DNA of 64,000 nt from Acidiferrobacteraceae bacterium (GTDB lineage Bacteria; Pseudomonadota; Gammaproteobacteria; HyVt-429). The translations under genes and the position numbers were made by a program. The notes under the pieces are model-generated. The model saw only the letters and a list, made by a program, of their open reading frames with translations, had not been told where the DNA came from and searched no databases. Where the stretch lies: the NCBI GenBank assembly GCA_011052015.1, contig DRJZ01000051.1, positions 828 through 64,827 on the forward strand, in the 5' to 3' direction. Numbering within the stretch: position 1 is the first letter of the stretch; the number at the start of each line of letters is the position of its first letter. Below, piece after piece: positions 5,540-58,905 of this stretch.

Positions 5540-5609
5540 GTTGAAGCCGGAGATTATTTGACACCATACTGAAGCAGCCTGGCATTAACAAAAAAAGGGG
5601 GCAACCCAG

Positions 5610-6704
5610 ATGAAAAAACTACTCAATCGACTCAAAGCGGAAAAGCTGTTTTCAATGCTGACCGAAAAACAGCTCCACACAGTCCTGGAACACAGCAAAA
5701 TCTGCAATGCCGAGGCCGGAGACGTGGTTTTCCCTCCTGACGAACCCATCACCCACTATCTCGTTATTGTTGATGGCGAACTTGGCTGTGAACGCCAATA
5801 CACCAACGCCGACGGCCAACAAGAATTCCGCCGCAGGGTACTGAAGGGCTGCGAGGCAGAGGGTGAGATCGCTGTACTCACCGCTGCGGGTCGCGGTTGC
5901 ACCGCGAGCGCCTTAACTCCTCTACGCTACATGCTGATCGAAGGCGATCTGATCGACGTATTTCTCGGCTGGAACCAGCAAGTGTCCCGCGCCATCGTCA
6001 ATGACCCTGAACTCACTCACCGCGCCAAGCTCGTTAAACAGGTCAACGTCTTTCATCAATTGCCCCTGGAAAACATCCAAGCGGCCTTCAAACGCATGTC
6101 AACAATTGAAGTGGGTGCCGGAAACACCGTGGTCAACGAGGGGGATTCCGGGGACTGCTACTATGTGATCGAAACCGGCACCGCAGAAGTATGGCGAACC
6201 GATCCCTTCACCGACGAAACCAAACTGGTTGCAGAATTTGGCCCTGGAGACGCCTTTGGGGAAGAGGCCTTGCTGCAAAATGCCCTGCGCAATGCCACCG
6301 TTAAAATGACATCGCCGGGGAGCTTGCTGGTACTCCAAAAATCCGACTTTGATGAATTGGTGCAACCCAAGTTTCTCCAGGAAGTCGAGGCCGATGTTGC
6401 CCGGGATATGGTCGATCAGGGCAAGGCAAAATGGCTGGACTGCCGGTACGAAATGGAATACGAAGAATCTCGCATACCCAATGCCCCCCTCATCCCCCTG
6501 GACCGCATTCGAGAAAACACCCATAAGCTGGATTCCGACTCCACCTACATCGTCTACTGCCGTAGCGGTCGGCGCAGCAAGGCAGGGGCATTCTTGCTGC
6601 GCGAGCGAAATATTAAGGCCCTGTCCATGATTGGAGGCATCGCTAACTGGCCTTTTGAAATCGATGCCGAAGCCATAGATTTAACCGATACCCACACCAC
6701 GTAA
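5610..6704 (+). CDS. Standalone tandem cNMP-binding-domain / rhodanese-domain protein (paralog of the C-terminal module of the upstream SulP fusion), active-site Cys present
   Basis: AAGGGGG RBS before ATG 5610; FGEEALLQNALRNATV phosphate-binding cassette; rhodanese loop YIVYCRSGRRSKAGAF (CRxGxR type); about 45-50% aa identity to residues ~600-949 of the 2690..5539 protein. Confidence 0.75.
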   Translation: MKKLLNRLKAEKLFSMLTEKQLHTVLEHSKICNAEAGDVVFPPDEPITHYLVIVDGELGCERQYTNADGQQEFRRRVLKGCEAEGEIAVLTAAGRGCTASALTPLRYMLIEGDLIDVFLGWNQQVSRAIVNDPELTHRAKLVKQVNVFHQLPLENIQAAFKRMSTIEVGAGNTVVNEGDSGDCYYVIETGTAEVWRTDPFTDETKLVAEFGPGDAFGEEALLQNALRNATVKMTSPGSLLVLQKSDFDELVQPKFLQEVEADVARDMVDQGKAKWLDCRYEMEYEESRIPNAPLIPLDRIRENTHKLDSDSTYIVYCRSGRRSKAGAFLLRERNIKALSMIGGIANWPFEIDAEAIDLTDTHTT

Positions 6705-6878: not shown

Positions 6879-9275
6879 CTAGATTACAGCCGCACTATTG
6901 CTGCCTTTTTCCCGGAGTCGTGCAAAAGCGATGAAAGCCGCCATATAGATGACCAGCGCTATCAGAAATAATAATTTAAATCCGATATATAGCGTCAACA
7001 CAACGCTCAGGACTCCTCCAATTACGGTAAACAGACCGTTCATGCCCCATGCCCATGGTATGGCGCCTTTTGGTTGATCCTGGATCGCCAATATACCCAG
7101 AGGCAGAGGCATGCCCATGAATATACCCAGGGGAATTATCATTGCTAATGATATCCCGATCCTTATCCAGATGGGTTCTTGCAGGAACGTATTAAATATC
7201 CAATGGTACGAGAATAGAAAAACAATCCCTATTGTCGCTATTCCGATAAATGGCCAATACCATTTATTTTTAACATCGATACCCAATTTCTGGGCTGCCA
7301 GACTGCCTAGTCCTGCCGCCAAGAGTAATGCAAACACGACCGTCGAATAGGTGTAAAGTGGATACCCGATCAGCTTCATGAACATCTGGATAAACATTAA
7401 TTCGATAATGATGAATCCAGCCCCAAGACATGAGAAATAAATGAGAGTCGTGGTTTTGGAATTCCAATGCGCCCGCCCCGCACTTGAATAATAGAGAGGG
7501 GCAACAATAAATAACACGATAAATATTAATGATGCGTAGCTTGTGATCACCAGGTGGAATATTTCTCGTGGAATACCCAGTTTACTAAGTTGTGAATTTA
7601 ACAGCGACGCGGTTGAGTAATCCATGTAAACGCCGCTTCCAGGCATTATTTTCTCGGTACTCTTGCGGAGGAAGTTGAAGAACGGTCTATTGTCGGTAGA
7701 GGCGAAAATATTGAACGGACTTTTTTCTATCGTTTCGGGAGATAACCTGCCGCTAAAATACTCGTCTGGGAGATATCTATTTTCACCGGATAAAGGATCC
7801 TCAACCAACTCTCTCTTTGAAATGATGCTATTCATTTCCGTGACTTCTTTTTGTGTCCAGGGACTCATTTTGACCATAAATGTGGGTAGATTGTCCTGAA
7901 ACCCTTTTGTTTTGTTTTGATAAACCAAAACGTGTTGCCTGAAGCTCGTGTAACCCAGTTTTCTCCAGGCTGCGGCGGCAGTGGTAACCATGCGTGGATA
8001 TACATGGTGGTTTATTTGCAGGACGCCATCTTTCTTCAGGTGCCTGAAATACTCTATATAGGCTTCGACGGTCTGGAGATAGGTTGTCGCCATTGCTCCA
8101 TTGCCCGCCGCGATGCTTGAGCTTGTGTGGTTGCTGAATATCTGGATGATGTCGTATCTCTTATTTTCCGATCTCAGGAAGCTTCTACCTTCCCCTTTGA
8201 GGTAGTTCACATTAGGATGATTGTAGATTTGTCCATTGTATGACGCGTATTTCTTCTTACCCAGTTCCACGACATAACCGACCAGTTCGATGGCGTCGAT
8301 AGTGGCTGCACCATAGGTAAGCGCCGCTTTGACTTCCTGCCCACCGGCACTGCCGATGACGAGAACGTCCTGTTGGCTATCACGCTTGAGATAATGTGAT
8401 GCAATGACAGCCGGATGCGTAAATTGTTGCCGATAATTTGCCGGCAGCCCCTTGCGCAGTTTCTTAAAATTACCATCGAACTTGACGACAACACTTGTCT
8501 GTGACCCTCCGTCATATAGAATATCTTTTCTTGCTTCAAAACCCGCCACGTCTATCTTCGATACCGGATCCCAATGGGTCAATTCTATTTTTCCCAGTAA
8601 TCGTAGTGTCCTGATGTTCCGCTTATCGCCGTGCGCCTTAAATACGAAGTAATCGGCCGAAGACACAAAGGGTGCGACTATACATGCCGTACCAATAACT
8701 AGCGCCACGTTTCGCCATACAATGTGCTTCGCAAATAAGCCCGACGCGATAATGCAAATCCCACCCACCATAAACAATAGGCCACCTGGACCCACATATG
8801 GCAAAAATGGAATAATAGCAATGCTGCCGAGACCCGCACCGATCAGGTCCCAGAAATACAGCGTTCGGATATTCGATGCGTACTTGGAAAAAAGAATCGC
8901 AAATACACTGCCCGAGAAGAAGAACGGTAAGGCCAGCACAAAATATACTATAAGTATAAGAAACACACCCTTTTTCGGATCAGAGAATAAAATATCAAAA
9001 TCAAAGTCCAGGTAATTTAATACAGGAAGTATTACTATGCTGAAAACACCGAATGCAAAGGCCATCACAGATAATCTGAATGCCGGGTCCTTGTGTGCAG
9101 CCAGCGGCTTTAAAGATAAATATATACCTGCCAGGGCAAAGCAGAACAAGGCGAGTGTTATCACCATATACGCCATGTGCGGAGCCCACAGCGAATCAAA
9201 TATCTTAATTAAAGTTAGTTCCAGCATCAAGGTTGCGAAAGCAACCATGAACAGTGCAACCTTGGTTTTAATCAT
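6879..9275 (-). CDS. Fused MFS-like membrane domain / spermidine-synthase-like (PABS methyltransferase-fold) integral membrane protein
   Basis: Many predicted TM helices at both ends; central Rossmann/PABS-like motif (VLVIGSAGGQEVKAALTYGAATIDAIELVGYVVELGKKKY...YDIIQIF); markedly AT-rich codon usage relative to the neighbours. Confidence 0.5.
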   Translation of the reverse strand: MIKTKVALFMVAFATLMLELTLIKIFDSLWAPHMAYMVITLALFCFALAGIYLSLKPLAAHKDPAFRLSVMAFAFGVFSIVILPVLNYLDFDFDILFSDPKKGVFLILIVYFVLALPFFFSGSVFAILFSKYASNIRTLYFWDLIGAGLGSIAIIPFLPYVGPGGLLFMVGGICIIASGLFAKHIVWRNVALVIGTACIVAPFVSSADYFVFKAHGDKRNIRTLRLLGKIELTHWDPVSKIDVAGFEARKDILYDGGSQTSVVVKFDGNFKKLRKGLPANYRQQFTHPAVIASHYLKRDSQQDVLVIGSAGGQEVKAALTYGAATIDAIELVGYVVELGKKKYASYNGQIYNHPNVNYLKGEGRSFLRSENKRYDIIQIFSNHTSSSIAAGNGAMATTYLQTVEAYIEYFRHLKKDGVLQINHHVYPRMVTTAAAAWRKLGYTSFRQHVLVYQNKTKGFQDNLPTFMVKMSPWTQKEVTEMNSIISKRELVEDPLSGENRYLPDEYFSGRLSPETIEKSPFNIFASTDNRPFFNFLRKSTEKIMPGSGVYMDYSTASLLNSQLSKLGIPREIFHLVITSYASLIFIVLFIVAPLYYSSAGRAHWNSKTTTLIYFSCLGAGFIIIELMFIQMFMKLIGYPLYTYSTVVFALLLAAGLGSLAAQKLGIDVKNKWYWPFIGIATIGIVFLFSYHWIFNTFLQEPIWIRIGISLAMIIPLGIFMGMPLPLGILAIQDQPKGAIPWAWGMNGLFTVIGGVLSVVLTLYIGFKLLFLIALVIYMAAFIAFARLREKGSNSAAVI

Positions 9276-9504
9276 TCTCGCACCCTTCAGATAATAAATT
9301 CCTGATTATTTTTGTGCATTTTGAAACAATCTACGCCTACTTAATCAATGCCTGTCTCACAAGATCAAAGCCATATGACAGATAAAATTATTGGCGACGG
9401 AGTAATAAAAACTTCCTCTATCTCAATAAACTCGCTATGGTTTCCCCATAAATTTTCCTGAAGAGCCATAAAACATAACATGAATGATACTACAGACACG
9501 CTAT

Positions 9505-9550
9505 CTATGACATGCCTTTCTCTGTGAGCTCCGTGCCTCCGCGGCAAAGA
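9505..9550. repeat. Single arm of the REP-like family (TCTCTGTGAGCTCCGTGCCTCCGCGG)
   Basis: Shares the CTCTGTG..CTCCGTGCCTC core with the arms at 49767-49924 and shorter versions at 12745-12785 and 28428-28468. Confidence 0.45.
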
Positions 9551-9637
9551 GAAGGCTGTATTCATATTTGCTCACAGCATTGGGTTAAAACCCATTAAAC
9601 CCAGTTTATTAGGGGACAAGAAAAGAGGAGGTGTTGC

Positions 9638-11305
9638 ATGTTAAATATTCAAATTAGTTTTGGTAAGGCAGCGGCGATCACGGTAGGTCTTGCCCTATTG
9701 CTTTACAAGTTATGGCTGGTCGAGGTTCATGATCTCTTCATGATAGGCAGCCCCATGGATGACCTGTTTTTTGTGCGTTCCGCCCAAGAATTGCTGGCCG
9801 GTAACTGGCTGGGCCGCTATACACAATACACGCTGATGGCCGGACCGGTCTACTCCATGTGGATCGCCCTGTGCTACCTGCTCGCAGTGCCCTTACACGT
9901 GGGCCAGCAACTGCTTTATGCCGGCGCTTCCCTGGTGACGGTTCTGGCCCTGTATCCGGTGGTGAGGCATAAGGGTTGGTTGCTGCTTGCCTTCGCCTAT
10001 CTTTTATTTAACCCCTTTACCTATGACTATTCATCGTCTGCCGGCGCCTTCCGGTTGGGGATTTACCCGGCCCTTGCGTTGCTGGTAATCGGGTGCGCCA
10101 TTGGCCTATATACGCGGGCCACGGTCCCCCGGGGCAAACCGTTGCCGTGGGCCGTGGGCCTCGGGGTGGCCTTGGCGGCGTTTTGGTATACACGCGAGGA
10201 GGGTATATGGATCGTGCCGGCGTTAGTGCTTACCGGCTTGTTTGTGGCCATACACGGCCGCACCCGCGGGCAGCGCCGCTGGACCTGTATTTTAGGCTTG
10301 CTCGCGGTGCCTCTGCTGATCTGGACGGGTTCATTCCTTGCGCTTGGGTATATGAATTGGAAGCACTACGGCATCTTCACCGACCTCGAGATCAAGAGCA
10401 CCGAATTCAAGTCAGCCTATAGCGCCTTGATCAGTGTGCGCAGCAATAAACACCAACGGTACTACCTGTTGGAGGCTCCGGTGAGTACCGCTCTAATCAA
10501 GGTGAGCCCTGCGTTCCGGGAGATCAAGCTTTATGTTGGTAAACTTCCTGCCTCGGTTTTTATCTGGTCCCTGCGCGATGCGGTGCAGGCAGCCGGGTAT
10601 TATGACCATGCCGGAAACGATGATCGAAAAAATGGACCGAAGACATTGGATTTTTATAAAAGGTTGGGCGATGAGATTCACCGGGCATGCGATACGGGGC
10701 AATTGACCTGTGATCGGTTGCTGTCATCGTTTGTCCCCGCGTGGACCGAGGAGTATAACCGTGAAATCTTTCCTACCCTTTACGATGTCACCAGAAAGTT
10801 ATTGACATTTGATGGCTTCGATCCGCGCATGCTCGCGAAATGGGTCAGCAGTGATCCCTATGACACATCTTGGTTGTTTACCTATATCACCGGCGAGCGG
10901 TTGCGTACCACCGATCCGGCTGTGCTCAGCAAAGTGCCCGAGGCGCACAGAGAATTTGAGGACATGAAGACTCATCGCCTCCTGCGCATCGGCCGCGACT
11001 ACTACCAGAATCTATTGCCATGGTTGTTTTGGCCCAGCGTAGTCGTGATATTGTTGGTTGCCCTCGTGGAGGCGATCAAAAGAAGAATGTCGCAAGTGAC
11101 AGTGGCTGCATTGATCGTGTTAGCGGCCCTCGTGTCGCATATCACGATTATCTCGCTGGTCGCGATGATGTCGACATTCGCACAGCGCTATTTGTTCGCT
11201 TCCTATCCTTTTGTCATTCTGGTCGTAATCCTGAGTGCGATTATGGTAGTACGCGTTATCACCACTTTGCGCGGCGGTATTGATGACATGGGCAATAGGA
11301 CATGA
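9638..11305 (+). CDS. GT-C fold glycosyltransferase-like polytopic membrane protein (ArnT/PMT-like)
   Basis: N-terminal TM followed by a DD/E motif in the first loop (PMDDLFFVRSAQELLAGNWLG), multiple TM helices, periplasmic domain, two C-terminal TM helices. Confidence 0.4.
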   Translation: MLNIQISFGKAAAITVGLALLLYKLWLVEVHDLFMIGSPMDDLFFVRSAQELLAGNWLGRYTQYTLMAGPVYSMWIALCYLLAVPLHVGQQLLYAGASLVTVLALYPVVRHKGWLLLAFAYLLFNPFTYDYSSSAGAFRLGIYPALALLVIGCAIGLYTRATVPRGKPLPWAVGLGVALAAFWYTREEGIWIVPALVLTGLFVAIHGRTRGQRRWTCILGLLAVPLLIWTGSFLALGYMNWKHYGIFTDLEIKSTEFKSAYSALISVRSNKHQRYYLLEAPVSTALIKVSPAFREIKLYVGKLPASVFIWSLRDAVQAAGYYDHAGNDDRKNGPKTLDFYKRLGDEIHRACDTGQLTCDRLLSSFVPAWTEEYNREIFPTLYDVTRKLLTFDGFDPRMLAKWVSSDPYDTSWLFTYITGERLRTTDPAVLSKVPEAHREFEDMKTHRLLRIGRDYYQNLLPWLFWPSVVVILLVALVEAIKRRMSQVTVAALIVLAALVSHITIISLVAMMSTFAQRYLFASYPFVILVVILSAIMVVRVITTLRGGIDDMGNRT

Positions 11306-11889
11306 TGTCGGTATAGCGGGTTTAACACACAGAGCCGTCCGGCAAGTATTACACGCAACAACGGGTTACGCACCAGTGTCGGGATTGCAATGCAGGGCAA
11401 TGGCGACACAATGTTGCAATTGCGCACGCTCGTCCATACACAAAAGTTTGTTTATGCCTGGACGCGAATGGTGCAACAGGTCTATGGATATCCGGATATG
11501 CGATGGATTTGCTGTAGTGCGGGATATCCTACAGCGTACCGTGCACAGCTACCTGCCCCTACTGAATTATACCGATCGGCAGGCGACCGGTATTCGGTGC
11601 CTCAGCCTGTCCCGTTGCATCGGTAGGGTGATCAATCCTGCAGAGGACCGTTTTAGGGAGAACGATCCGGTCACCATGCGACTCCCGCTCTATGCAGCAG
11701 AGCACGAAAACGAACTATGGACGTGTTTCTTTAAGGGAAGGCTCAGTGGGGTAAAAAGAATCATCAATTAACAAAAGTGCCCATATGTCTATTACTCATG
11801 GAATAAAACTACCCCCCTATAACGTCTACTAAAGTGATTTGAAGAAACCTCACTTTCAGAAACCTCTAGGAGATAAACCCGTGACCAAG

Positions 11890-12351
11890 ATGAAACGCAG
11901 AGCATTTCTCAAGGGCAGCATGGCTGGGAGTGTGCTCGCCATAGCGGTCGGCGCCGGGCTACTGCGCCCTACCCAAGTCATGGCCAGCCAATGGCCGGAT
12001 AAGGCCTTTAAAGCACGCAACCTCGCCGATGCGGTCAACAGTCTATATGGCAGTTCAGACGTTGCGGACAGCAAAGCTATCAAGATTCGTGCGCCTTTAC
12101 AGGCAGAAAATGGCGCCAAGGTGCCAATTCAGATCCTCACCGATCTACCAGCAGAATCTATTGCCGTCTTTGTTAAGGAAAACGCCATGCCCTTGGCAGG
12201 GCGCGCCAATCTGCGCAATGCCAGTGGTTTTTTTAGTACCCGTATCAAGATGGGTAAGAGTTCCGATGTGGTCGCTGTGATCAAATCAAAAGGCAAGCTC
12301 CACTCAACCAAGCTGGCGATTAAAGTCACTGTAGGTGGTTGCGGCGGCTAA
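11890..12351 (+). CDS. soxY: SoxY sulfur-carrier protein, copy 1
   Basis: Tat-like signal MKRRAFLKG; C-terminal GGCGG swinging-arm motif; ORF track starts at 11839 but ATG 11890 (MKRRAFLKG) is the likely start. Confidence 0.85.
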   Translation: MKRRAFLKGSMAGSVLAIAVGAGLLRPTQVMASQWPDKAFKARNLADAVNSLYGSSDVADSKAIKIRAPLQAENGAKVPIQILTDLPAESIAVFVKENAMPLAGRANLRNASGFFSTRIKMGKSSDVVAVIKSKGKLHSTKLAIKVTVGGCGG

Positions 12352-12388
12352 CCCATTTCGATATTGATATTTAAAGAGGAATATAATC

Positions 12389-12706
12389 ATGGCAAGAAAG
12401 ACTAAAGTACGCACCCGCATGCAAGACGGCAAAGTCGAAGTATTGATTCTGATCACCCACCCCATGGAGACCGGCCTTCGCTCTGATAAAAAAACCAAAC
12501 AAAAGATCCCGGCCCACTTCATTCAAACCCTGGATGTCATCCTGAATGGAGAACCGGTGGCCAACGCCGAACTGGGGATAGGCATCTCTACCAACCCATT
12601 ACTGGGTTTCCGTCTCAATTCGGCGAAAACCGGTGATAAACTACAAATTAAATGGAAGGATAACAAGGGGGAGAGTGGAACCATCAACAGCAAAGTCGAT
12701 CTCTGA
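12389..12706 (+). CDS. soxZ: SoxZ, copy 1
   Basis: 105 aa, immediately downstream of soxY; about 50% identical to SoxZ copy 2 (ITHPMETGLRSDKKTKQKIPAHFIQ..., GESGTIN). Confidence 0.85.
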   Translation: MARKTKVRTRMQDGKVEVLILITHPMETGLRSDKKTKQKIPAHFIQTLDVILNGEPVANAELGIGISTNPLLGFRLNSAKTGDKLQIKWKDNKGESGTINSKVDL

Positions 12707-12830
12707 TCAAAACCTTTATTGATGTGTTACTACTCTGTATCCCCGTGTCCTCTGTGGTGAAAAATTGTGCACGGAGCACCCTGATTCCTTGGTGGCTTGA
12801 AGACGACGGTGTCCAAGGAGCAATAAGCAC

Positions 12831-13208
12831 TTACTCGTTTTCGGTCAATCGCTCGTAGTGGGATTGAAACAATATCTCCAAGTCATTGATCACCTCCATA
12901 GCCGCCCGTCCTTCCATGACATGCTGGGATACCAGGGCGGTTGATTCGTTCATAAGCTCGGTGGCGTCTATCATTGGATAGGTGATGGTAAGGCGTTGAA
13001 TGGCCTTTACCACGGTTTCTTCCCCCGGCCGTGGAATCGATAGCGGCTCCTTCACCCCAGAGTCTCTATGCACCCCACCCTCTTGAGCGTGCAAAAACTC
13101 GGCAAAATCCAGCAGGCTAGTCCGTTTGGCGTCCGTCAAACCCTGAAAGATTGCTGCCAATCGGTGACTTGGGTTCCCGCTCATCACTCTTCTTGATGTC
13201 GACATCAC
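12831..13208 (-). CDS. Hypothetical small protein, translationally abutting the LysR gene
   Basis: 125-aa ORF starting 3 nt after the LysR stop; no recognisable motif. Confidence 0.35.
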   Translation of the reverse strand: MMSTSRRVMSGNPSHRLAAIFQGLTDAKRTSLLDFAEFLHAQEGGVHRDSGVKEPLSIPRPGEETVVKAIQRLTITYPMIDATELMNESTALVSQHVMEGRAAMEVINDLEILFQSHYERLTENE

Positions 13209-13210
13209 CG

Positions 13211-14134
13211 CTAACTTGATCCCTCATCAACACCGGTCTTTTGTTTTTCACAGTGGTCGTGGGCAAAACCCATGAACTCTTCCATGGCCCGCAGACGAAA
13301 TTTTTGGCGCTGATAGACCAGGGCAAAGGGCCTGACCAACGGAGGATCGAGCTTGACCGTTGCCAATGTCCCCAGACTGATTTCCTTGCCCAAGGTGGCC
13401 TCGGAAATAATCGAAATACCGAGACCCGCTTCCACCGCACTCTTTACCGACTCTGGGCTACCAAACTCCATGGCCACATTTATCTGACTTAGGCTGATAC
13501 CATTTTGCTCGAGGTAATTTACGATAAAATCGCGCGTACCTGAACCCTCTTCCCGGCATATAAATGGATAACCAGTCAAGTCTGCCGCGCCAATCGAGAT
13601 CTGGCCCGCCAGTTCGTGACCATTGGGACAGATCAGCACTAAATTGTCGTGCCAACAGACCTCCACAACCAGATTCTTGTTGCTCACCGGTGATTCGACG
13701 ATCCCTATGTCAACCTCATTATTTTCCACCATGTGGACAATGCCTATAGAATTGGATACCCTGACGCGGATCTTGACCTCTGGAAATTGCTTCTGAAATT
13801 CTCCTAACAGAGCGGGTATCACATATTCTGCGATCGTGGTGCTGGCCCCTATCAGCAACAGACCCATAATATCGCCAGTCAGCCGCCGTACCTCATTTTC
13901 CATTTCGTTGTACAACGCGATAATACGGTCGGCATATTGGTAGACCTGCTCACCGGCATCGGTCAGGTTAATCTTGTTGTGGGTACGATCAAACAGGCGG
14001 GTATTGAAGTATTCTTCCAACTGCCGGATCTGAAATGTAACCGCCGGCTGGGTCATGTGCAAAGAATCCGCCGCCTTAGTAAAACTCAGCAAGCGGGCGA
14101 CGGTATAAAAAACCTGTAGGCGGCGATCAGCCAT
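13211..14134 (-). CDS. LysR-family transcriptional regulator
   Basis: N-terminal wHTH (LQVFYTVARLLSFTKAADSLHMTQPAVTFQIRQLEEYFNTRLFDR) and LysR substrate-binding domain. Confidence 0.85.
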   Translation of the reverse strand: MADRRLQVFYTVARLLSFTKAADSLHMTQPAVTFQIRQLEEYFNTRLFDRTHNKINLTDAGEQVYQYADRIIALYNEMENEVRRLTGDIMGLLLIGASTTIAEYVIPALLGEFQKQFPEVKIRVRVSNSIGIVHMVENNEVDIGIVESPVSNKNLVVEVCWHDNLVLICPNGHELAGQISIGAADLTGYPFICREEGSGTRDFIVNYLEQNGISLSQINVAMEFGSPESVKSAVEAGLGISIISEATLGKEISLGTLATVKLDPPLVRPFALVYQRQKFRLRAMEEFMGFAHDHCEKQKTGVDEGSS

Positions 14135-15453: not shown

Positions 15454-15614
15454 GTCCTATCCTTTATTGCTCTGAGCTCAGCCTGGATACTACCCCATAG
15501 CATTGCTGAATTCAGATAAAAGACCGCAGTTCAAAATATTCGCGTCTGGAAAGGCGCTCCTCCAAGGGGGAAAAATACCCTGGCCCCTACAGAAGCGAGC
15601 TCACGATCAAACTA

Positions 15615-15732
15615 AAGAAATTCTGATCAATTGAACTTGAACCGCCAAGATGCCAAGAATTTTCTTTATAAAAACCAACAATCTATTAGCTTGGCGACCT
15701 TGGCGGTTTGAGCGCATTAATCAGAGGTTCCC
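15615..15732 (+). mobile_element. MITE-like element copy 1 (imperfect 17-bp TIRs, TA target duplication, internal CGCCAAG repeats)
   Basis: TA|AAGAAATTCTGATCAAT...ATTAATCAGAGGTTCCC|TA; near-identical copies at 25352-25476 and 52660-52800. Confidence 0.6.
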
Positions 15733-15740
15733 TATAAATA

Positions 15741-15764
15741 AAAAGGGGCGCATGCGCCCCTTTG
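15741..15764. terminator. Bidirectional rho-independent terminator (GGGGCGCATGCGCCCC palindrome flanked by A/T runs)
   Basis: Perfect 16-bp palindrome 15745-15760 with AAAA upstream and TTT downstream, in the convergent gap below the 15788-16345 gene. Confidence 0.6.
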
Positions 15765-15787
15765 AATTGTAGTGTGCAGACTTTCAA

Positions 15788-16330
15788 TTACGGACAGGCC
15801 GTCGTCTCGCTCGGCACCTTACCCACCAGCAACAAGAAGTTCTCGAACGGGCCCATGTTCTTCATGGCCTCCCACATTGGACCCTCGAAACCCAAACGCC
15901 CGAACATCATGGCCTTCATGGGGCCGTAATCACCGTTACCCATTTGAACCCAGCGCTGGGTCTTGGCATACATTACATAGTCAACACCGGTGTCAAGTTC
16001 CTTGTGTTGTACTGCTCCGCCGTAGGTGCACAGGGCTTTGCCGTCTTTCTGGGAAATGCTGACTTCCACCCGTGGGCTTTTTTCGCAATCGGAACGATAA
16101 AAATGGATAATCTTGTAACCCCGTCCCTTGTCATTACCTGCCCAACCGGACTTGGCCAACTCGTCGGTTAATACCGGGTCACCATTCCAGGCCTCACAGG
16201 CCGCAGTGGCCCATTCTGCCGACATCATCAGGGGACCCGCCTGGGCGGCGGGGACCCCCACCAACAGCAACCCAAGTCCCAGACCGACAGGCCACTGCCG
16301 GGTGGCACGCAACATTAAATTAAATCGCAT
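15788..16330 (-). CDS. Periplasmic SCP2-like (sterol-carrier/lipid-binding fold) protein
   Basis: Signal peptide MRFNLMLRATRQWPVGLGLGLLLVGVPAAQA; C-terminal SCP2 signature (YGPMKAMMFGRLGFEGPMWEAMKNMGPF). Confidence 0.5.
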   Translation of the reverse strand: MRFNLMLRATRQWPVGLGLGLLLVGVPAAQAGPLMMSAEWATAACEAWNGDPVLTDELAKSGWAGNDKGRGYKIIHFYRSDCEKSPRVEVSISQKDGKALCTYGGAVQHKELDTGVDYVMYAKTQRWVQMGNGDYGPMKAMMFGRLGFEGPMWEAMKNMGPFENFLLLVGKVPSETTACP

Positions 16331-16421
16331 TATGAAATCCTCCATCTTGATTTAAGCCCCGCACGCGTTGCCCAGGACTGTTTATTGTATGAGTATATTC
16401 TTCAACACTTAAATAGCCGGA

Positions 16422-16451
16422 GAAAAAAAGGGCCATGGTTTCCCATGGCCC
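16422..16451 (-). terminator. Rho-independent terminator downstream of the FadL-family gene
   Basis: GGGCCATGG-TTTC-CCATGGCCC perfect 9-bp stem followed by a T-run on the minus strand. Confidence 0.55.
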
Positions 16452-16485
16452 TGAATTTTAAGCTAGCTGTTAAGCAGTGCCCACC

Positions 16486-17778
16486 CTAAAAATTAAGGCC
16501 CACTGAAAAAGCATACTGCTTCATCTTGATCTCAATGGTCTCAGCCGGGTTCAACATACTGGGTCCGGAAACCGAGTTGCTGGGAGCATACATAACGGCC
16601 ACATTGAGCTGCTTACCATGACTCAAGTCTTTGCCGAAACCAAAGGTAAAGTGGTTTTCCACCACCCCAGGGGCCAGGATATTGAGGGTCACTTCAGACG
16701 GACTGATAGGCTGACTGCCGGTAGCAAAACCCGCACGCCAGGTCCAACCACCATTGGTCTTCCTCTGGTAACCGATCTTGAAAGCGGTCATATCATCCCA
16801 CCCAAAACCGGCACTGGCGCTGCCGCCAAGACAATTGGCCATCACACCCGCCATGCAGCCGGAGGTCAATACGCCACCGGGGTTACCCACTGCGTCTACA
16901 TCAGAGTACCAGATCTGCTGAATGTCAAAGGTTACCGCAGATTTGCTATCGGGTTTGAAAGCCAGACCGATAGTGGCGGTAGCGGGAATATCGAATTCAC
17001 CACCCTTAGGGAACAGACCCGCATACTTGTCCATCTTATTGCTAATCTTGGTCTGATAGGACGCGCCAAAACTAAGCTGCGAGTTCACCTTAGCCAGGAT
17101 ACCGATCTTGCCACCAAAACCCCAAGTGCTGTCTACACCGTTGTTGGATAGCTTGGTAGGCGCTACCGAAAACCCACCGAAGGCCGCCAGACCATCCGCC
17201 TTAAACCGGGAGTGGTTGATGATGCCGGTAATACCGATCGACACCGTGTCACTCACCTTACGGGCATAGGTGGTATTGATAAACAATTGCTTGTAATCAA
17301 TGCCGGCATTGGGGTCGCCTGCCCCAGCACCACCGAAGGTGCCAGCACCAAATGTGGTATCGGCATCGGTGTATTCTGAGTTCATACCACCATTACCGAA
17401 CACGGTAACACCAATAGAGCTATTTTTGTCCAGCATCTTGTTATAGGCAAAGTTCGGGATCAAAAAGACCTCGTTATCACTCTGCACCGGTCCGCCGACA
17501 AAGGGTGGAAAGCTGCCATTGGTGCCGGTAATGGTGTATTCACGAATGGGGTGAAACGACGTAATTCCAACAACGGTACTATTCCCCACCATAACCATAC
17601 CCGCAGGGTTGATGGCGCCGGTCATGGCATCCTGGGGCAAGGCCACACCAGCACCGCCCATGCTGCTCTGGATGGCTCCATAGCCGTGCGAAAAATAGCC
17701 CAGTGTCGCGTTGCTGACGGGTGATGTAAAACCCAGTGCGGCAGCCACAGCGAAAGCGAGTGTTGTTTTCTTGTTCAT
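16486..17778 (-). CDS. FadL/TodX/OmpP1-family outer-membrane channel for hydrophobic compounds
   Basis: Signal peptide; N-terminal GYFSHGYGAIQSSMGGAGVALPQDAMTGAINPAGM hatch motif; beta-barrel pattern with C-terminal Phe. Confidence 0.65.
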   Translation of the reverse strand: MNKKTTLAFAVAAALGFTSPVSNATLGYFSHGYGAIQSSMGGAGVALPQDAMTGAINPAGMVMVGNSTVVGITSFHPIREYTITGTNGSFPPFVGGPVQSDNEVFLIPNFAYNKMLDKNSSIGVTVFGNGGMNSEYTDADTTFGAGTFGGAGAGDPNAGIDYKQLFINTTYARKVSDTVSIGITGIINHSRFKADGLAAFGGFSVAPTKLSNNGVDSTWGFGGKIGILAKVNSQLSFGASYQTKISNKMDKYAGLFPKGGEFDIPATATIGLAFKPDSKSAVTFDIQQIWYSDVDAVGNPGGVLTSGCMAGVMANCLGGSASAGFGWDDMTAFKIGYQRKTNGGWTWRAGFATGSQPISPSEVTLNILAPGVVENHFTFGFGKDLSHGKQLNVAVMYAPSNSVSGPSMLNPAETIEIKMKQYAFSVGLNF

Positions 17779-18171
17779 TGCAAGACTCCTCCTCGGTAGA
17801 AACGGTCATAAGGGTGTCGCCACCCATTGGTAAGGGTCAGTCAAAAAACGATGGCCCAAGCTAAATACCTAAAATTTGCAACCGAATAACATTAAAACCA
17901 CCTCCTGCCCAATCTATAGGCTGATCGGATCAGCAGGGTCGAAAGAAATAATGGACCCATAATATAGGCGTGTCAATATATAATTGTATACTAACATAAG
18001 GATTTTTTGTTCTGGATTGTCGATGTCCCCAGGCTGGATTGGCTGCCTGAATCACTGCCAAGATCACTTCGCTTATGGCCACCCCAGACCATCCCCTGTT
18101 ATCACCCAAAAATGTAGATCAGGATAAGGGAAAAAGACAGTTACTTTAAAGAAAACGAAAGTTAGCTAAGC

Positions 18172-18206
18172 ACAAAAAAGGGCGCTGTTTCCACAGCGCC
18201 CTTTTT
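18172..18206. terminator. Bidirectional rho-independent terminator (GGGCGCTG-TTTCCA-CAGCGCCC) downstream of the DsrE-like gene
   Basis: 8-bp perfect stem flanked by A-run and T-run. Confidence 0.55.
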
Positions 18207-18238
18207 CATCCCTGGCAAACCCAGGCCTTCGATTTACA

Positions 18239-20593: not shown

Positions 20594-20938
20594 CGACACA
20601 TTTTTCAGTTTGACTCAGCCTCCCTGGCCACCAAGGGGCGTCAAAATTTTGTCCAGATCCCTACTCACGACACCACCACAAACAAACGAGAATCAAGTAT
20701 ATTAGTAATTGCTAATATTACAATATGGGGCCCCGGCTTTTTTCTTCTTCCCCGATCGGGTTGCGCTCATCAATCTGGTGTGGTATTTCTTCTTTAGCAC
20801 TAACCAAAGCAGTTTCAGCTGCAGGCCCGAATCCAACAGGAAATCCAGCCGTATATAAGAAGACAACGATTTTGGTCCCTGTAAATTCTGGGTTAATTAT
20901 TCACAACTATTTATTCCCTATTCTACGAGGAGGATGTA

Positions 20939-21355
20939 ATGCGGAAATCCAGCACTTTCATTACCACCCTCGGTGCAGTTGCACTGATGATGGGTGGAAT
21001 GGCAATTGCACCGCAGGCAGTCGCGGTCGGCGAAATGCCGAGCAAGAAAGTCTGTAAATCAAAGCCCAAAGACCCCGTGGTCGCGGGTGGGTGCATCGCC
21101 ACTGACCGTAAAAAAGGCAATTGCATGGCTTGCCACAGCTTTGCTGGTCTAGAGAAGACCCGACTCCAATCCGGCAACGTTGGACCACCTCTCGTCGCCA
21201 TGAAACAACGCTTCAAAGACAAGAAAAAACTGCGTGCCCAAATCTGGGATGCCACCAAGGCTAACCCGCAGTCCATGATGCCGCCATTTGGTAGACATAA
21301 AATCTTGTCTGAAAAAGACATTGATCTGATTACCGCATGGGTGCTTAGCCTGTAG
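20939..21355 (+). CDS. soxX: SoxX monoheme cytochrome c
   Basis: Signal peptide, single CMACH heme motif, MMPPFG; first gene of a soxXYZA(B) array. Confidence 0.8.
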   Translation: MRKSSTFITTLGAVALMMGGMAIAPQAVAVGEMPSKKVCKSKPKDPVVAGGCIATDRKKGNCMACHSFAGLEKTRLQSGNVGPPLVAMKQRFKDKKKLRAQIWDATKANPQSMMPPFGRHKILSEKDIDLITAWVLSL

Positions 21356-21412
21356 TGGCAAAACAGATTTTAGTGGTAGCACAATTACACAGCTATGTAG
21401 GAGAAGGTAACA

Positions 21413-21880
21413 ATGAAACGTAGAACGTTTATGAAGGGCAGTCTTGCGGGAAGCGTACTGGCGGTTGCCGCCGGTAGTGGCCTGCTTAAGCCCACCGATG
21501 TCCTGGCAGCAGGGTGGCCGAAAGGGGCGTTTGACGCTCAAAGCGAAGCCGATATGCTGAGCAGCCTGTATGGCTCGAGCAGCGCCAGCGCTAGCGGAAA
21601 GATCCGTATTAAGGCCCCGATCCAGGCGGAAAATGGGCGCGTGGTGCCGGTTAAGGTACAGGCCAGTCTGGCTAATGTAGAATCCATTGCCGTCGCCGTC
21701 GCCAAGAACCCACGCCCCCTCGCCACTAGCGTCAATCTGAGCGGTGGTGCAACCGGCTATTACAGCACCCGCATTAAAATGGGCAAGACCTCTAAGGTCA
21801 CCGCCTATGTTAAAGCTGGCGGTAAACTGCATACGGCTTCCAAAACGGTGAAAGTGACCGTTGGTGGCTGCGGCGGTTAA
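21413..21880 (+). CDS. soxY: SoxY, copy 2
   Basis: Tat signal MKRRTFMKG; C-terminal VTVGGCGG. Confidence 0.9.
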   Translation: MKRRTFMKGSLAGSVLAVAAGSGLLKPTDVLAAGWPKGAFDAQSEADMLSSLYGSSSASASGKIRIKAPIQAENGRVVPVKVQASLANVESIAVAVAKNPRPLATSVNLSGGATGYYSTRIKMGKTSKVTAYVKAGGKLHTASKTVKVTVGGCGG

Positions 21881-21915
21881 GCCGGGCTTACGCTTAACAT
21901 ATCGAGGACTACGAA

Positions 21916-22227
21916 ATGGCTAGATTAACAAAGATCAAAACCAGGAAGCGTGGCGATACCACAGAAATCCTGGCACTGGTAAACCATCCTATGGAAACCG
22001 GTAGGCGCAAGAACAAAAAGACCAAGCAAAAGGTTCCGGCGCACTACATCCAGAAAATGACCTTCGAACTCAACGGCAAGGTAGTTGCGGAAGCGAGCTT
22101 GGGACCTGCGGTCTCCAAGAACCCTCTGACTGCCGTCACCGTCAAAGGCGCCAAAACTGGCGACAAAGTAAAGGTAAGCTGGACCGATAACAAGGGTGAA
22201 AGCGGCGGCGCCACAGGGGCCGTATAA
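21916..22227 (+). CDS. soxZ: SoxZ, copy 2
   Basis: 103 aa, LVNHPMETGRRKNKKTKQKVPAHYIQ; follows soxY. Confidence 0.9.
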   Translation: MARLTKIKTRKRGDTTEILALVNHPMETGRRKNKKTKQKVPAHYIQKMTFELNGKVVAEASLGPAVSKNPLTAVTVKGAKTGDKVKVSWTDNKGESGGATGAV

Positions 22228-22296
22228 CTTCAAACTTATTATGGGGATCGCCGGGTCGCTACGATTCGGCGGCATTCCAGCCTTAGGAGGAAAATA

Positions 22297-23115
22297 ATGA
22301 AGAAGCTTATTATTGCAGTAACGGCTCTTGGATTGCTGGCGTTTGGTTCGCTATCGGTCCAAGCTAGCCCTCAAAGTGACCTGAAAGCATTTCAGGGATA
22401 CTTTAAGAAAAACTTCCCAAAAATCAAATTCGACGATTTCTCAAATGGTCTTTATGCCCTTCCTGAGGCCGCCGACCGGCGCGCCGAATGGGAGGCCATC
22501 GAAGAATTCCCACCTTATGAGCTTGACCTCGCCAAGGGTAAGAAGTTTTGGGAGAAAAACAAGCTGGGTACCTGCTTTAAGAATGGCGGTGCCGGTATTG
22601 CCCAAAACTACCCCTACTGGGACAAGAAAAAGAAGGAAGTCCGCACCGCAGAGTTGGACATCAATGCCTGCTTGAAACGGCAAGGCAAAAAGCCTATCAA
22701 AAAAGGCAAATTGGCTACCGTAACCGCCTATTTCTATAACATGGCGCGGGGCAAACGGATCAAGATTGACGTGTCAGCTCCTGGCGCTATTGCCGAATAT
22801 GAGAAGGGCAAGCATTTCTTCTGGGCCAAGCGCGGCCAGTTGAACTTCTCATGCGCCAACTGTCACATCAGCGGGGCAGGCAAGCGGGTTGGCGGTAACA
22901 TCATGAGTACGGCTCTGGGTCACGGTACCGGTTTTCCGGCCTACCGCTCCAAGTGGGGCGGTCTGGGTACCATCCACCGCCGTTATAAAGGCTGCAACAA
23001 GCAGGTGCGGACTGCGCCATTAAAGCAGAACAACAAGACGTACCGTGCACTGCAACTGTATGAAACATATATGAATACAGGCCTGCCTTTGACGGCACCC
23101 AGTAACCGGTTCTAG
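22297..23115 (+). CDS. soxA: SoxA, monoheme type
   Basis: Signal peptide; single CANCH heme motif; Cys ligand in RRYKGCNKQVR; no second CXXCH. Confidence 0.85.
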   Translation: MKKLIIAVTALGLLAFGSLSVQASPQSDLKAFQGYFKKNFPKIKFDDFSNGLYALPEAADRRAEWEAIEEFPPYELDLAKGKKFWEKNKLGTCFKNGGAGIAQNYPYWDKKKKEVRTAELDINACLKRQGKKPIKKGKLATVTAYFYNMARGKRIKIDVSAPGAIAEYEKGKHFFWAKRGQLNFSCANCHISGAGKRVGGNIMSTALGHGTGFPAYRSKWGGLGTIHRRYKGCNKQVRTAPLKQNNKTYRALQLYETYMNTGLPLTAPSNRF

Positions 23116-23142
23116 CACCTACCGTAATAAAATGGGGTACCA

Positions 23143-23172
23143 AAGCCCGGCCCCAGTGGCCGGGCTTTTTTT
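23143..23172 (+). terminator. Rho-independent terminator after soxA
   Basis: AGCCCGGCC-CCAGT-GGCCGGGCT perfect stem followed by TTTTTTTT. Confidence 0.65.
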
Positions 23173-23319
23173 TAATAAGTTGCATGGGGATTCAGCGCAT
23201 AATTAAAACGTTTGGAATGGCCCTGAACCCTGTAGCGTTCTAGTTCTAGTGCGGGGTAACCCACTAAACATACGCTACTAAATAATTACAACAGACCGTT
23301 TGATGATGGAGCTAAGAAG

Positions 23320-25068
23320 ATGAGCCTTTCCCGACGTGAATTCCTCCAACTGCTGACTGCAGCCAGTGCCGCAGGATTCGCCCTGCCAGGCTGCGACAGC
23401 AGCAACACCACGACCGCGCATACCACAGCTTCATCTACCAACCCGGCCGACCCCTATGAGCTAAAGCCGTTTGGTAATGTTTCCTTTATGCACTTTACCG
23501 ACTGCCACGCGCAACTGCTACCCGTGCATTTTAGAGAACCCAACATTAACCTGGGTTTCGGTAGCGCCTATGGCAAGGCCCCGCATCTGGTAGGCGACAA
23601 GTTCCTGAAGCATTTCGGCATCAAACCCGGCACACGTGAGGCCCATGCCTTTACCTACCTGAACTATGTCGAAGCCGCGCAAAAATACGGCAAGGTCGGT
23701 GGCTTTGCCCATCTTGCCACCCTCGTCAAACAGATTAAGGCGCAGCGTCCAAACGCTCTACTACTCGACGGTGGTGACACTTGGCAGGGTTCGGCCACCG
23801 CACTGTGGACCAAGGGTCAAGATATGATAGATGCCTGTAAGCTTCTGGGCGTGGACGTTATGACCGGCCACTGGGAGTTCACCTATGGAGCCAAACGGGT
23901 ACAGGACATCATCAAGAATGATCTTGATGGCCATATAGAATTTCTAGCTCAAAATGTGGTGGAAACCACGTTTGAAGACCGCATTTTTAATCCCTATACC
24001 ATTAAAGAACAAAATGGCATCAAAATCGCGGTCATCGGCCAGGCCTTCCCTTACACACCGATTGCCAACCCACGTTACATGATCCCGGATTGGAGCTTCG
24101 GTATTCGTGATGAGGCCCTGCAAGAACTGGTTGACGAGGTGCGTGGCAAAGGGGCCCAAGTGGTAGTTATCCTGTCTCACAACGGCATGGACGTGGACCT
24201 CAAGATGGCTAGCCGGGTAACCGGTGTCGATGCCATCATGGGTGGTCACACCCACGACGGGGTTCCGGCGCCCAGTGTCATCAGCAACTCCAATGGCAAA
24301 ACCCTGGTTATCAACTCGGGCTCAAACGGAAAGTTCTTGTCGGTGCTGGACCTCGAAGTCAAAGGGGGCAAAGTTAGCGATTATCGCTTCAAGATGCTGC
24401 CGATATTCTCGAATCTCATCAAGGCCGATGCCCAGATGACTGCCCATATCAATAAGGTCCGTGCACCTTACAAGGCCAAACTTGAAGAAAAGCTGGCCAT
24501 CACCGACAGCCTGCTCTACCGGCGGGGCAACTTTAATGGCACCTTTGATCAACTGATTCTGAATGCCCAAATAGAGGTCCAGGGCGCTGATATGGCGTTT
24601 TCACCGGGATTTCGTTGGGGCGTGAGTCTACTACCGGGAGAGGCCATCACCCGTGAGGCCTTGATGTCTCAGACCGCAATCACCTACCCCAAGGCCACCC
24701 TCAACACAATAACGGGCGAAAACCTGAAGACCATCATGGAAGGCATCGCCGACAACCTGTTCCACGAAGATCCCTACTATCAGATGGGTGGAGATATGGT
24801 GCGAACCGCCGGATTAAAATACACCATTGACCCCACCGCAAAGATGGACCACCGAATCAGCGATATGGAGATAAACGGTTCAAAAGTAGAGGCCAGCAAG
24901 GAATATCTAGTCGCTGGCTGGGCTGCGGTTAACCCGGTACCGAAGGGTCGACCCATCTGGGACATCGTCGAGGAATACCTGAAATCCATTAAAGTCGTCA
25001 AAATAGACAAACCCAATGTGCCAAAATTAAAAGGGTCAAGCGGCAACCCAGGTATTGCAAGTATATAA
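23320..25068 (+). CDS. soxB: SoxB thiosulfohydrolase (5'-nucleotidase/metallophosphatase family)
   Basis: Tat signal SRREFLQLL; metallophosphatase motifs (FMHFTDCHAQL, GGDTWQGS, GHWEF, GGHTHD); 582 aa. Confidence 0.9.
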   Translation: MSLSRREFLQLLTAASAAGFALPGCDSSNTTTAHTTASSTNPADPYELKPFGNVSFMHFTDCHAQLLPVHFREPNINLGFGSAYGKAPHLVGDKFLKHFGIKPGTREAHAFTYLNYVEAAQKYGKVGGFAHLATLVKQIKAQRPNALLLDGGDTWQGSATALWTKGQDMIDACKLLGVDVMTGHWEFTYGAKRVQDIIKNDLDGHIEFLAQNVVETTFEDRIFNPYTIKEQNGIKIAVIGQAFPYTPIANPRYMIPDWSFGIRDEALQELVDEVRGKGAQVVVILSHNGMDVDLKMASRVTGVDAIMGGHTHDGVPAPSVISNSNGKTLVINSGSNGKFLSVLDLEVKGGKVSDYRFKMLPIFSNLIKADAQMTAHINKVRAPYKAKLEEKLAITDSLLYRRGNFNGTFDQLILNAQIEVQGADMAFSPGFRWGVSLLPGEAITREALMSQTAITYPKATLNTITGENLKTIMEGIADNLFHEDPYYQMGGDMVRTAGLKYTIDPTAKMDHRISDMEINGSKVEASKEYLVAGWAAVNPVPKGRPIWDIVEEYLKSIKVVKIDKPNVPKLKGSSGNPGIASI

Positions 25069-58859: not shown

Positions 58860-58905
58860 CTCGCCAAGGCGCCAAGTGCGCAAAGGAAAAACGGCTACGG
58901 TGACG
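58860..58905 (+). repeat. Right copy of the islet-flanking direct repeat
   Basis: See the 57085-57130 feature. Confidence 0.55.

Follow-up and report, generated by a model that had tools for sequence, protein, structure and literature searches.

Sulfur oxidizers commonly maintain more than one SoxYZ carrier; up to five soxY genes have been found in one genome (Sudo et al. 2024, mSystems, PMC11237559), and second canonical copies have been described without a known regulator (PMC11237559). A further case is a stretch of 64,000 nucleotides (nt) from an Acidiferrobacteraceae bacterium (assembly GCA_011052015.1, contig DRJZ01000051.1, positions 828 to 64,827), referred to here as the window, in which a stand-alone soxY-soxZ pair (copy 1, soxY1 and soxZ1) is followed 9 kb downstream by a soxXYZAB cluster with a pair of its own (copy 2), and the partners SoxAX and SoxB are thus encoded in the same genome. 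A second soxYZ pair is in itself routine genome content and already documented; the new part is a motif ahead of soxY1 that resembles the promoters of extracytoplasmic function (ECF) sigma factors, a lead that rests on comparative sequence evidence. The answer that we favor, and consider reasonably probable, is that soxY1Z1 encodes a functional carrier that uses the same SoxAX and SoxB and is transcribed separately, probably under an ECF sigma factor. Direct evidence is available for the integrity of the two genes, their family membership, the selection acting on them, their clade separation, their synteny, and the conservation and specificity of the motif.

Both genes of copy 1 are intact and canonical. 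In the list of open reading frames (ORFs), soxY1 appears at 11839/11890-12351 on the plus strand, where it encodes 153 amino acids from the ATG at 11890, or 156 amino acids from an in-frame GTG at 11881 (11881..12351). The GTG is probably the true start, because an AGGAG (11868-11872) lies 8 nt ahead of it and because other gene callers use it to give a product of 156 amino acids (P0003, L107); the twin-arginine translocation (Tat) motif of SoxY1 is unaffected by the choice of start. After a gap of 37 nt, soxZ1 (12389..12706, plus strand, 105 amino acids) follows with its own Shine-Dalgarno sequence, AAGAGGA at 12375-12381, 7 nt before the ATG. The original prediction held that the window encodes two complete SoxY proteins, both with a GGCGG ending and a Tat signal, and two SoxZ proteins, and this was borne out by curated models and by motifs read from the sequence. 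Both SoxY proteins pass the cut-off of 125 bits for TIGR04488 (SoxY_true_GGCGG), SoxY1 with 138.2 and SoxY2 with 150.8, and both SoxZ proteins pass the cut-off of 76 bits for TIGR04490 (SoxZ_true), SoxZ1 with 115.9 and SoxZ2 with 123.1. In Pfam, both SoxY proteins match PF13501 (SoxY1 at E 8.7e-27) and both SoxZ proteins match PF08770. The N-termini of the two SoxY proteins read MKRRAFLKG and MKRRTFMKG, twin-arginine motifs of the RRxF(L/M)K type, and the signal peptide of SoxY1, MKRRAFLKGSMAGSVLAIAVGAGLLRPTQVMA/SQ, is predicted by reading of the sequence to be of the Tat type. KVTVGGCGG stands directly before the stop codon in SoxY1, with an identical arm context in SoxY2, and the C-terminal carrier arm VTVGGCGG is common to 199 of the 202 SoxY homologs collected. 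SoxY1 is homologous to the solved SoxY chains 2nnc_A (E 2e-22), 4uwq_B (E 3.8e-11) and 2ox5_Y (E 3.4e-08), and SoxZ1 to the solved SoxZ chains 1v8h_A and 4uwq_C (E 3e-11) as well as 2ox5_Z, the matched chains being from Chlorobium, Thermus and Paracoccus. Searches with tblastn found no further copy in the window beyond the two SoxY and two SoxZ.

The two copies were next of interest for their age, as the original prediction had called them an ancient paralog pair of about 50-55% identity rather than a recent duplication. The order of this estimate was right, with measured values slightly higher: in BLASTP, SoxY1 and SoxY2 are 57% identical over 155 amino acids (E 3e-54), and SoxZ1 and SoxZ2 are 56% identical over 97 amino acids (E 2e-40). 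The age claim held. Nucleotide identity between the paralogs is 59% for soxY and 56% for soxZ, falling to only 39% and 34% at third codon positions, and the synonymous divergence (dS) is 1.95 or not computable, so that synonymous sites are saturated and the duplication is therefore old. A phylogeny, which had been named as one way to check the claim, placed the copies in different clades: a neighbor-joining tree of 202 SoxY proteins (about 157 columns, 100 bootstraps) groups copy 1 with a clade of 20 members (bootstrap 74), whereas copy 2 belongs to a separate clade of 16 (bootstrap 66), from which an old paralogy likewise follows.

Copy 1 is under purifying selection. Relative to the ortholog in its closest relative (locus L001, genome GCA_013152415.1, whose SoxY is 80% identical to SoxY1), the ratio of nonsynonymous to synonymous divergence (dN/dS) is 0.078 for soxY1 and 0.066 for soxZ1, values that are approximate as dS there lies above 1. 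These measurements bear most directly on the idea that the copy-1 duplicate is decaying or has no function, for which the loss of its usual downstream neighbor bcp and the 5-kb insertion upstream of it could be cited. A dN/dS of about 0.07 effectively refutes this idea, and the frames, signature motifs, ribosome-binding sites and Tat signal are all present, with the same layout kept in the near-identical strain contig L107 (in ERZ508539). A copy 1 that was a pseudogene, or that lacked the conserved cysteine arm, had been named as what would overturn the original prediction; the gene is intact and its KVTVGGCGG arm is in place, and we regard decay as highly improbable.

The reference for copy 1 is the operon soxX-soxY2-soxZ2-soxA-soxB (20939..25068, plus strand), which encodes SoxAX and SoxB and in which soxX (20939-21355, TIGR04485) is followed by soxY2 (21413-21880) and soxZ2 (21916-22227), the paralogs of soxY1 and soxZ1, and then by soxA (22297-23115, TIGR04484) and soxB (23320-25068, TIGR04486, 855 bits). 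No soxCD was found in the window.

The motif that distinguishes copy 1 lies on the plus strand, 53-62 nt upstream of the soxY1 start. It reads TGGAATAAAACTACCCCCCTATAACGTCTA (11799..11828) and is of the ECF-sigma promoter type, with a -35 element GGAAT(A) and a -10 element CGTCTA, appearing in the window as TGGAATAAA...CGTCTA. An alignment of five otherwise unalignable copy-1 upstream regions left TGGAAT and GTCTA as the sole invariant blocks. The strict pattern TGGAAT-N15-21-GTCTA has one match in the 64-kb window, where 0.10 would be expected, and one match per copy-1 locus, always on the coding strand and upstream of soxY, and it has no match in the copy-2 loci L021 and L022. With 80 further SoxY loci from a metagenome scan included, 9 of 52 non-redundant stand-alone soxYZ loci have the relaxed pattern GGAAT-N17-19-GTCT in the 350 nt ahead of them, compared with none of the 40 soxY genes preceded by soxX. 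Across 1.81 Mb, both strands included, this pattern has 30 matches, about 14 of which lie elsewhere, so that an upstream region of 350 nt would be expected to hold roughly 0.003 of them. In its extended form the consensus reads atGGAATAAA-N14-gCGTCTA. The motif is conserved across copy-1 loci and is specific to them relative to soxY genes that follow soxX, and we infer that at soxY1 it acts as an ECF promoter.

Several other readings of the sequence ahead of soxY1 were considered and rejected. A sigma-54 reading of the TGGAAT block would need GG-N10-GC spacing, which among the loci inspected by eye fits L018 alone. A Crp-like site or leader hairpin, AAAGTGA-N12-TCACTTT (11832-11857), is not conserved in L001 and folds no better than shuffled sequences (z 0.04). 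A second relaxed match in L001 (14575-14601, minus strand) is without the extended consensus and was judged to be due to chance. No terminator was found after soxZ1.

The main operon appears to be controlled by different sequence. The GGAAT...GTCT motif is not present in the soxX upstream region, which instead contains a perfect palindrome, ATATTAGTAATTGCTAATAT (20699..20718), conserved amid otherwise divergent sequence in L021, a copy-2-type soxXYZAB locus, and a second block shared with L021, GGTGTGGTATTTCT, at about 20774-20787. The palindrome and this block are a candidate operator and promoter of soxXYZAB, and the palindrome appears to mark a regulatory region different from that of copy 1. 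Separate control of soxY1Z1 is proposed because the pair has a conserved ECF-type motif of its own and soxXYZAB has a different upstream region. In other lineages the division may run differently: the motif precedes both soxY and soxB in L026 (767-793 and 2752-2778), and in L036 (651-677) it precedes soxX in an soxXYZAB operon that, like the one in the window, comes directly after an M48/TPR protease gene, which suggests that in some lineages whole sox operons may be under the control of the ECF-like motif.

These results also bear on the simplest explanation of a second pair, namely plain redundancy or dosage, with copy 1 expressed constitutively from an unrecognized sigma-70 promoter and the motif being either no promoter or the site of some other factor. 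Dosage has been proposed for duplicated canonical soxY in Sedimenticola (PMC11237559), and because the pathway uses SoxYZ stoichiometrically as its substrate, extra carrier might be of advantage. The 57% identity, saturated synonymous sites and separate clades of the two copies, however, do not fit a recent dosage amplification. In addition, no sigma-70-like site was found upstream of soxY1 (11200-11890), and the two-block motif with its ECF-like spacing is the only conserved upstream element and is also found ahead of an ECF sigma gene within sox clusters. We therefore regard a simple dosage effect as quite unlikely; it is, like pseudogenization and the LysR control discussed below, less likely than separate transcription of a functional carrier under an ECF sigma.

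The link to an ECF sigma factor comes from Rhodocyclaceae. At locus L101, an ECF sigma gene that comes after a soxYZ pair has the motif directly ahead of it, and homologs of the 235-amino-acid neighbor protein of this sigma led to Sulfuricystis multivorans and other Rhodocyclaceae. Sox clusters with ECF sigma and anti-sigma-like genes are present at L103:5379-6699 (Sulfuricystis multivorans, AP018718.1, 419824-432522), L104:5379-6699, L105:2693-4013, and L101:1-898 and 1826-2408, in the order sigma, anti-sigma-like, soxY, soxZ, soxA, soxX-like, soxB, or in the order soxYZ, sigma, anti-sigma-like, soxA, X, B. In each Rhodocyclaceae cluster the motif (GGAAT-N18-GTCT) lies 34-35 nt upstream of the sigma gene, which fits the expectation for an autoregulated ECF sigma. 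The L101 sigma matches the general sigma70-ECF superfamily model only. The start of L101 (1-144) encodes the C-terminal 48 amino acids of an ECF sigma that are 96% identical to residues 127-174 (2265-2408) of the sigma at the other end of the contig. Either the sigma-antisigma-soxYZ unit is repeated in tandem, or strain variants were wrapped around in the assembly.

The anti-sigma-like partner (about 232 amino acids) matches zf-HC2 weakly at its N-terminus, spans the membrane once and ends in a DsrE-like domain. Two of its cysteines are invariant, C44 and, in the DsrE-like domain, C192. It has at least 166 homologs, some of which are labeled in their sources merely as “DsrE family protein.” From the position of the single transmembrane segment, the DsrE-like domain is predicted to be periplasmic, making this protein a candidate sulfur-sensing anti-sigma factor that could be a direct sulfur sensor.

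The promoter type is known from Sinorhizobium meliloti, where thiosulfate, taurine and sulfite activate the ECF26 sigmas RpoE1 and RpoE4 (PMC3511301). Their mapped promoters follow GGAATAA-N-CGTCT, for example TCATGGAATAAGCGAGGCAGCTCGCTCGTCTC (PMC6180224 Table 1), and the ECF26 consensus is given as GGAAT at -35 and CGTC at -10, with 1-bp spacing variation between promoters (PMC6527743). In its sequence, the window motif matches this experimentally defined ECF promoter type, which is tied to oxidative sulfur metabolism. In a tblastn search of a plasmid collection, the best S. meliloti match of the Sulfuricystis sigma (L103) was the rpoE4 locus, at 37.8% identity, with the matched sigma gene upstream of genes for an anti-sigma, a sulfite oxidase, a cytochrome c and a pseudoazurin; the match sits in a chromosome-sized (3.7 Mb) S. 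meliloti record labeled pSymB. A literature search of limited scope returned no paper tying an ECF sigma factor to soxYZ or to the Sox pathway.

Several observations weigh against the favored reading and are considered together here. No ECF sigma or anti-sigma gene is present in the 64-kb window or in the gammaproteobacterial copy-1 loci that were fetched, so that a cognate sigma in this genome is assumed; both this sigma and the signal that triggers it we infer. GGAAT and GTCT are 19 nt apart in the window and likewise in L001 and L002, compared with 18 nt in 12 other loci and at S. meliloti rpoE4 and 17 nt at sorT. The relaxed motif would be expected by chance about 1.3 times in 64 kb, and the case for it therefore rests on position and conservation. 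As it occurs in only 9 of the 52 stand-alone soxYZ loci, it is a lineage-restricted feature. The assignment to an ECF group is loose and not settled, because related groups such as ECF207 have a similar motif (-35 GAATAA, -10 GGTCT) and may cross-talk (PMC13492112). Finally, the SoxY tree is a neighbor-joining tree on a short alignment, with moderate bootstrap support for both clades. FecR-domain genes (window 533-1366; also L001 and L002) were considered as a source of the anti-sigma and rejected as no sigma gene adjoins them; they probably belong to a different system, since they accompany TPS/ShlB/CHASE2-cyclase genes.

A regulator is, in fact, encoded close to copy 1. A LysR-family gene lies at 13211..14134 on the minus strand (Pfam HTH_1 and LysR_substrate), separated from soxZ1 by a small ORF of unassigned function (117-125 amino acids, 12831..13208, minus strand) that is co-oriented with the LysR gene and downstream of it. 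The original prediction had drawn attention to this adjacency, which is correct as a matter of position. As a clue to function it did not stand up. Besides physical proximity, control of soxYZ copy 1 by this LysR could appeal to the synteny of the LysR gene, the small ORF and soxYZ1 in five lineages. The LysR gene and soxYZ1 are, however, convergent and not divergent, with the small ORF in between, so that they have no shared intergenic region, and the relatives have further genes in between, namely bcp, in some cases phoH, and an LCM-family gene. The order common to L001, L002, L018 and L019 is soxY-soxZ-bcp-[phoH]-<orf<LysR<pilT-like, in which bcp and usually phoH separate soxZ from the small-ORF/LysR pair; bcp is present after soxZ in all other copy-1 loci and is missing without remnant in the window (12707-12830, compared with L001:10825-11646), and LysR adjoins soxZ1 here because bcp was lost. 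In L040 and L044, the LysR gene and the gene for the pilT-like ATPase also occur ahead of soxXYZAB, at a distance of about 5 kb, as part of a wider backbone. The protein itself, 92% identical to its L001 ortholog, is assigned by NCBIfam to a selenium-metabolism-associated LysR family (NF040786, 272.9 against a cut-off of 250). Taken together, control of copy 1 by the LysR protein is very unlikely. The small ORF has no Pfam or NCBIfam match, is 72% identical to the L001 ORF and occurs also in L002, L018 and L019; it belongs to the syntenic backbone and not evidently to sox.

The upstream side of copy-1-type loci varies. In blastn comparisons of the window with L001, collinearity is broken between 6679 and 11856, where the window carries an apparently inserted segment of about 5 kb (6879..11305) that is absent at the syntenic position in L001. 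It contains two large multi-pass membrane-protein genes without an informative Pfam match, one of 798 amino acids (44.8% GC, weak spermidine-synthase-like match) and one of 555 amino acids (no family match), and it lies between soxY1 and cNMP-rhodanese genes that directly precede soxY in L001. Among the other copy-1 loci, L001 alone has such rhodanese genes ahead of soxY; L002, L018 and L019 do not. The window has also lost (around 15454-15787) an RND efflux operon, which in L001, L002 and L018 stands between the pilT-like gene and the SCP2 gene.

Whether copy 1 might have diverged for other sulfur species (sulfite, polysulfide or sulfane sulfur), or for a partner other than SoxAX/SoxB, is the remaining alternative, which goes back to the suggestion in the original prediction that multiple carriers could serve different substrates or partner enzymes, and a specialized carrier of this kind would be compatible with separate regulation, the two not being mutually exclusive. 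Four positions, K77 (codon at about nt 12118-12120) and G104-R105-A106 (about nt 12199-12207), do not vary among the 20 members of the copy-1 clade, and their residues are rare among the remaining 182 SoxY proteins, which have V in place of K77 and A/T, S/N and V in place of G104-R105-A106. Copy 1 also diverges faster than copy 2. The copy-1-type locus L002 and the copy-2-type locus L021 come from the same metagenome sample, and the neighbors of L021 are as in the window (SCP2, FadL-like, DsrE2-like, M48 protease, soxXYZAB, YeeE-like, queCE, tol-pal), which suggests that the pair of copies was kept in a second lineage; relative to the window, SoxY identity is 68% for copy 1 (L002) and 81% for copy 2 (L021), with L002 and L021 only probably from the same organism. 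SoxYZ is reported to matter for sulfite oxidation in Allochromatium vinosum (Dahl et al. 2013, as cited in PMC5024460 and PMC6382920). Furthermore, the promoter type ahead of soxY1 is tied to a sulfite response in alphaproteobacteria (PMC3511301). On the other side, the carrier arm is the same in both copies, with an ending found in nearly all homologs, and both copies pass the “true” equivalog models for thiosulfate carriers. No alternative periplasmic partner gene is conserved beside copy 1, as the bcp product is apparently cytoplasmic and the upstream neighbors vary. We consider a specialized carrier unlikely, while giving it more weight than a dosage effect.

Two possible partners were looked at individually. 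The bcp product was considered as a SoxS/SoxW-like periplasmic thioredoxin partner and rejected; it is a 155-amino-acid Bcp-type peroxiredoxin (YFYPKDNTSGCT) without a signal peptide, and its gene is absent from the window. The original prediction had also suggested the rhodaneses of the window as partners. In these proteins the rhodanese domain follows a STAS or a cNMP-binding domain, which points to cytoplasmic STAS/cNMP-rhodanese proteins, and direct sulfur transfer between them and SoxYZ seems topologically unlikely, because Tat-exported SoxYZ would be periplasmic.

Other features of the window have a bearing on sulfur metabolism in their own right. A conserved three-gene cluster (1545-6704), also present in L001 and L107, encodes a 381-amino-acid multi-heme cytochrome c with a SoxA/TsdA-type domain, a 949-amino-acid SulP-STAS-cNMP-binding-rhodanese fusion, and a 364-amino-acid cNMP-binding-rhodanese protein. 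This is an unusual coupling of cyclic-nucleotide sensing with sulfur-related domains, and in relatives the cluster lies near FecR-domain, TPS and CHASE2-cyclase genes. Between the two sox loci (15788-20593) are genes for an SCP2-domain protein, a FadL/TodX-type outer-membrane channel, a DsrE2-like protein (PF13686) and an M48/TPR (BepA-like) protease, a set that also precedes soxXYZAB in L021; a “beta-barrel assembly-enhancing protease” adjoins a Sedimenticola soxY variant (PMC11237559). Directly downstream of soxB lie a tRNA gene (25179-25251, minus strand) and a gene for a YeeE/YedE-type sulfur-transport membrane protein (25483-26718, minus strand), and a tandem-rhodanese protein is encoded at 58895-59803. 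An Rfam scan of the window returned one tRNA only. The rest of the window is ordinary chromosome, with queCE, tol-pal, ruvABC, aspS, leuS, yhdP, rng and others. A contig scan with SoxY1 yielded a single true ortholog, most of the loci returned being distant ones of Aquificota.

Returning to the favored reading, in which soxY1Z1 is a separately transcribed carrier for the same Sox enzymes, SoxY1 and SoxZ1 would form a periplasmic, Tat-exported sulfur-carrier heterodimer, an old paralog of the pair encoded in soxXYZAB. Thiosulfate-derived and other sulfur adducts would be carried on the cysteine of the C-terminal GGCGG arm of SoxY1, and, judging from family membership, SoxAX would load the carrier and SoxB would unload it, both being supplied by the operon 9 kb away. 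The stand-alone two-gene unit would be read from an ECF-sigma promoter and soxXYZAB from a different control region, making soxY1Z1 a conditionally induced extra or alternative carrier pool that is switched by an ECF sigma/anti-sigma signal. As a speculation, sulfite, sulfane sulfur or a similar sulfur species in the periplasm would be a plausible inducing signal. A broader proposal, to which we give somewhat less than even credence, is that an RpoE4-type (ECF26-like) sigma/anti-sigma system is an undescribed Sox regulator in beta- and gammaproteobacterial sulfur oxidizers, with a DsrE-like sensor and, in the lineage of the window, with its promoter type joined to just one of two SoxYZ paralogs, so that basal (soxXYZAB) and induced (soxY1Z1) carriers would exist side by side. 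If this proposal is correct, it would provide a concrete regulatory reason for the presence of several SoxYZ carriers in sulfur oxidizers, and if a sulfite- or thiosulfate-responsive ECF sigma reads copy 1, then the paralogs would differ first in timing and not in cargo. Such a sigma would also extend ECF26-type sulfur signaling from alphaproteobacterial sulfite dehydrogenases to beta- and gammaproteobacterial Sox.

Several soxYZ copies per genome are common, for example in Acidithiobacillus and Sulfurimonas, where the second soxYZ usually lies inside a second sox cluster, such as one with soxCD or a second soxAXB. The second pair in the window is, in contrast to that arrangement, a stand-alone two-gene unit. 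Tandem soxY-soxZ pairs were also observed in metagenome contigs, three in L056 (1585-4480) and two in L070 (347-2230), with SoxY copies that are 45-54% identical to the SoxY proteins of the window. A Thioalkalivibrio paper (PMC6382920) was considered as a precedent and rejected, as the “two copies” it describes are of soxX, soxB and soeABC and not of soxYZ.

The closest described arrangement is that of Sedimenticola, a gammaproteobacterium which, like the organism of the window, has a complete sox operon and elsewhere an extra canonical soxY (S1a) with an adjacent soxZ (PMC11237559), and which shares with it a truncated Sox system without soxCD, as judged for our organism from the window, and a canonical carrier arm. 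The Sedimenticola copies are nearly identical, with dosage proposed and the second copy described without a regulator (PMC11237559), whereas the copies in the window are 57% identical, fall into separate clades, and include a second copy that is preceded by a conserved ECF-type motif. The well-studied SoxYZ proteins of Paracoccus pantotrophus and Thermus thermophilus (PDB 2ox5, 2oxg, 4uwq; swinging GGCGG arm) share with copy 1 the family hidden Markov models, a Tat-exported SoxY, the GGCGG arm with its cysteine, the soxY-soxZ gene pair, and the presence of SoxAX and SoxB in the same genome. SoxY1 is nevertheless distant from the solved Paracoccus and Thermus SoxY chains (E 3.8e-11 to 3.4e-08), its arm reads VTVGGCGG compared with the VTIGGC quoted as canonical in PMC11237559, and the window has two carrier pairs rather than one and is without soxCD.

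On the regulatory side, the nearest counterparts are the ECF26 sigmas RpoE1 and RpoE4 of S. meliloti and SigE of Starkeya novella, whose promoters share with the window motif a -35 element GGAAT(A) and a -10 element CGTCT, at a spacer of about 18 nt compared with 19 nt in the window, and which have a link to periplasmic oxidative sulfur metabolism (PMC3511301, PMC6180224, PMC6527743). The GGAAT/CGTC consensus was not found upstream of the betaproteobacterial sulfite-oxidase genes examined in PMC6527743. The window is without a sigma gene, and the known ECF26 targets are the sulfite dehydrogenase genes sorT and sorA in Alphaproteobacteria and not soxYZ. The anti-sigma-like protein of the Rhodocyclaceae sox clusters carries a DsrE-like C-terminal domain, whereas an RsiW-like domain has been reported in S. 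meliloti. Among the S. meliloti sigmas, however, it is RpoE4 to which the sigma of these Rhodocyclaceae sox clusters is closest.

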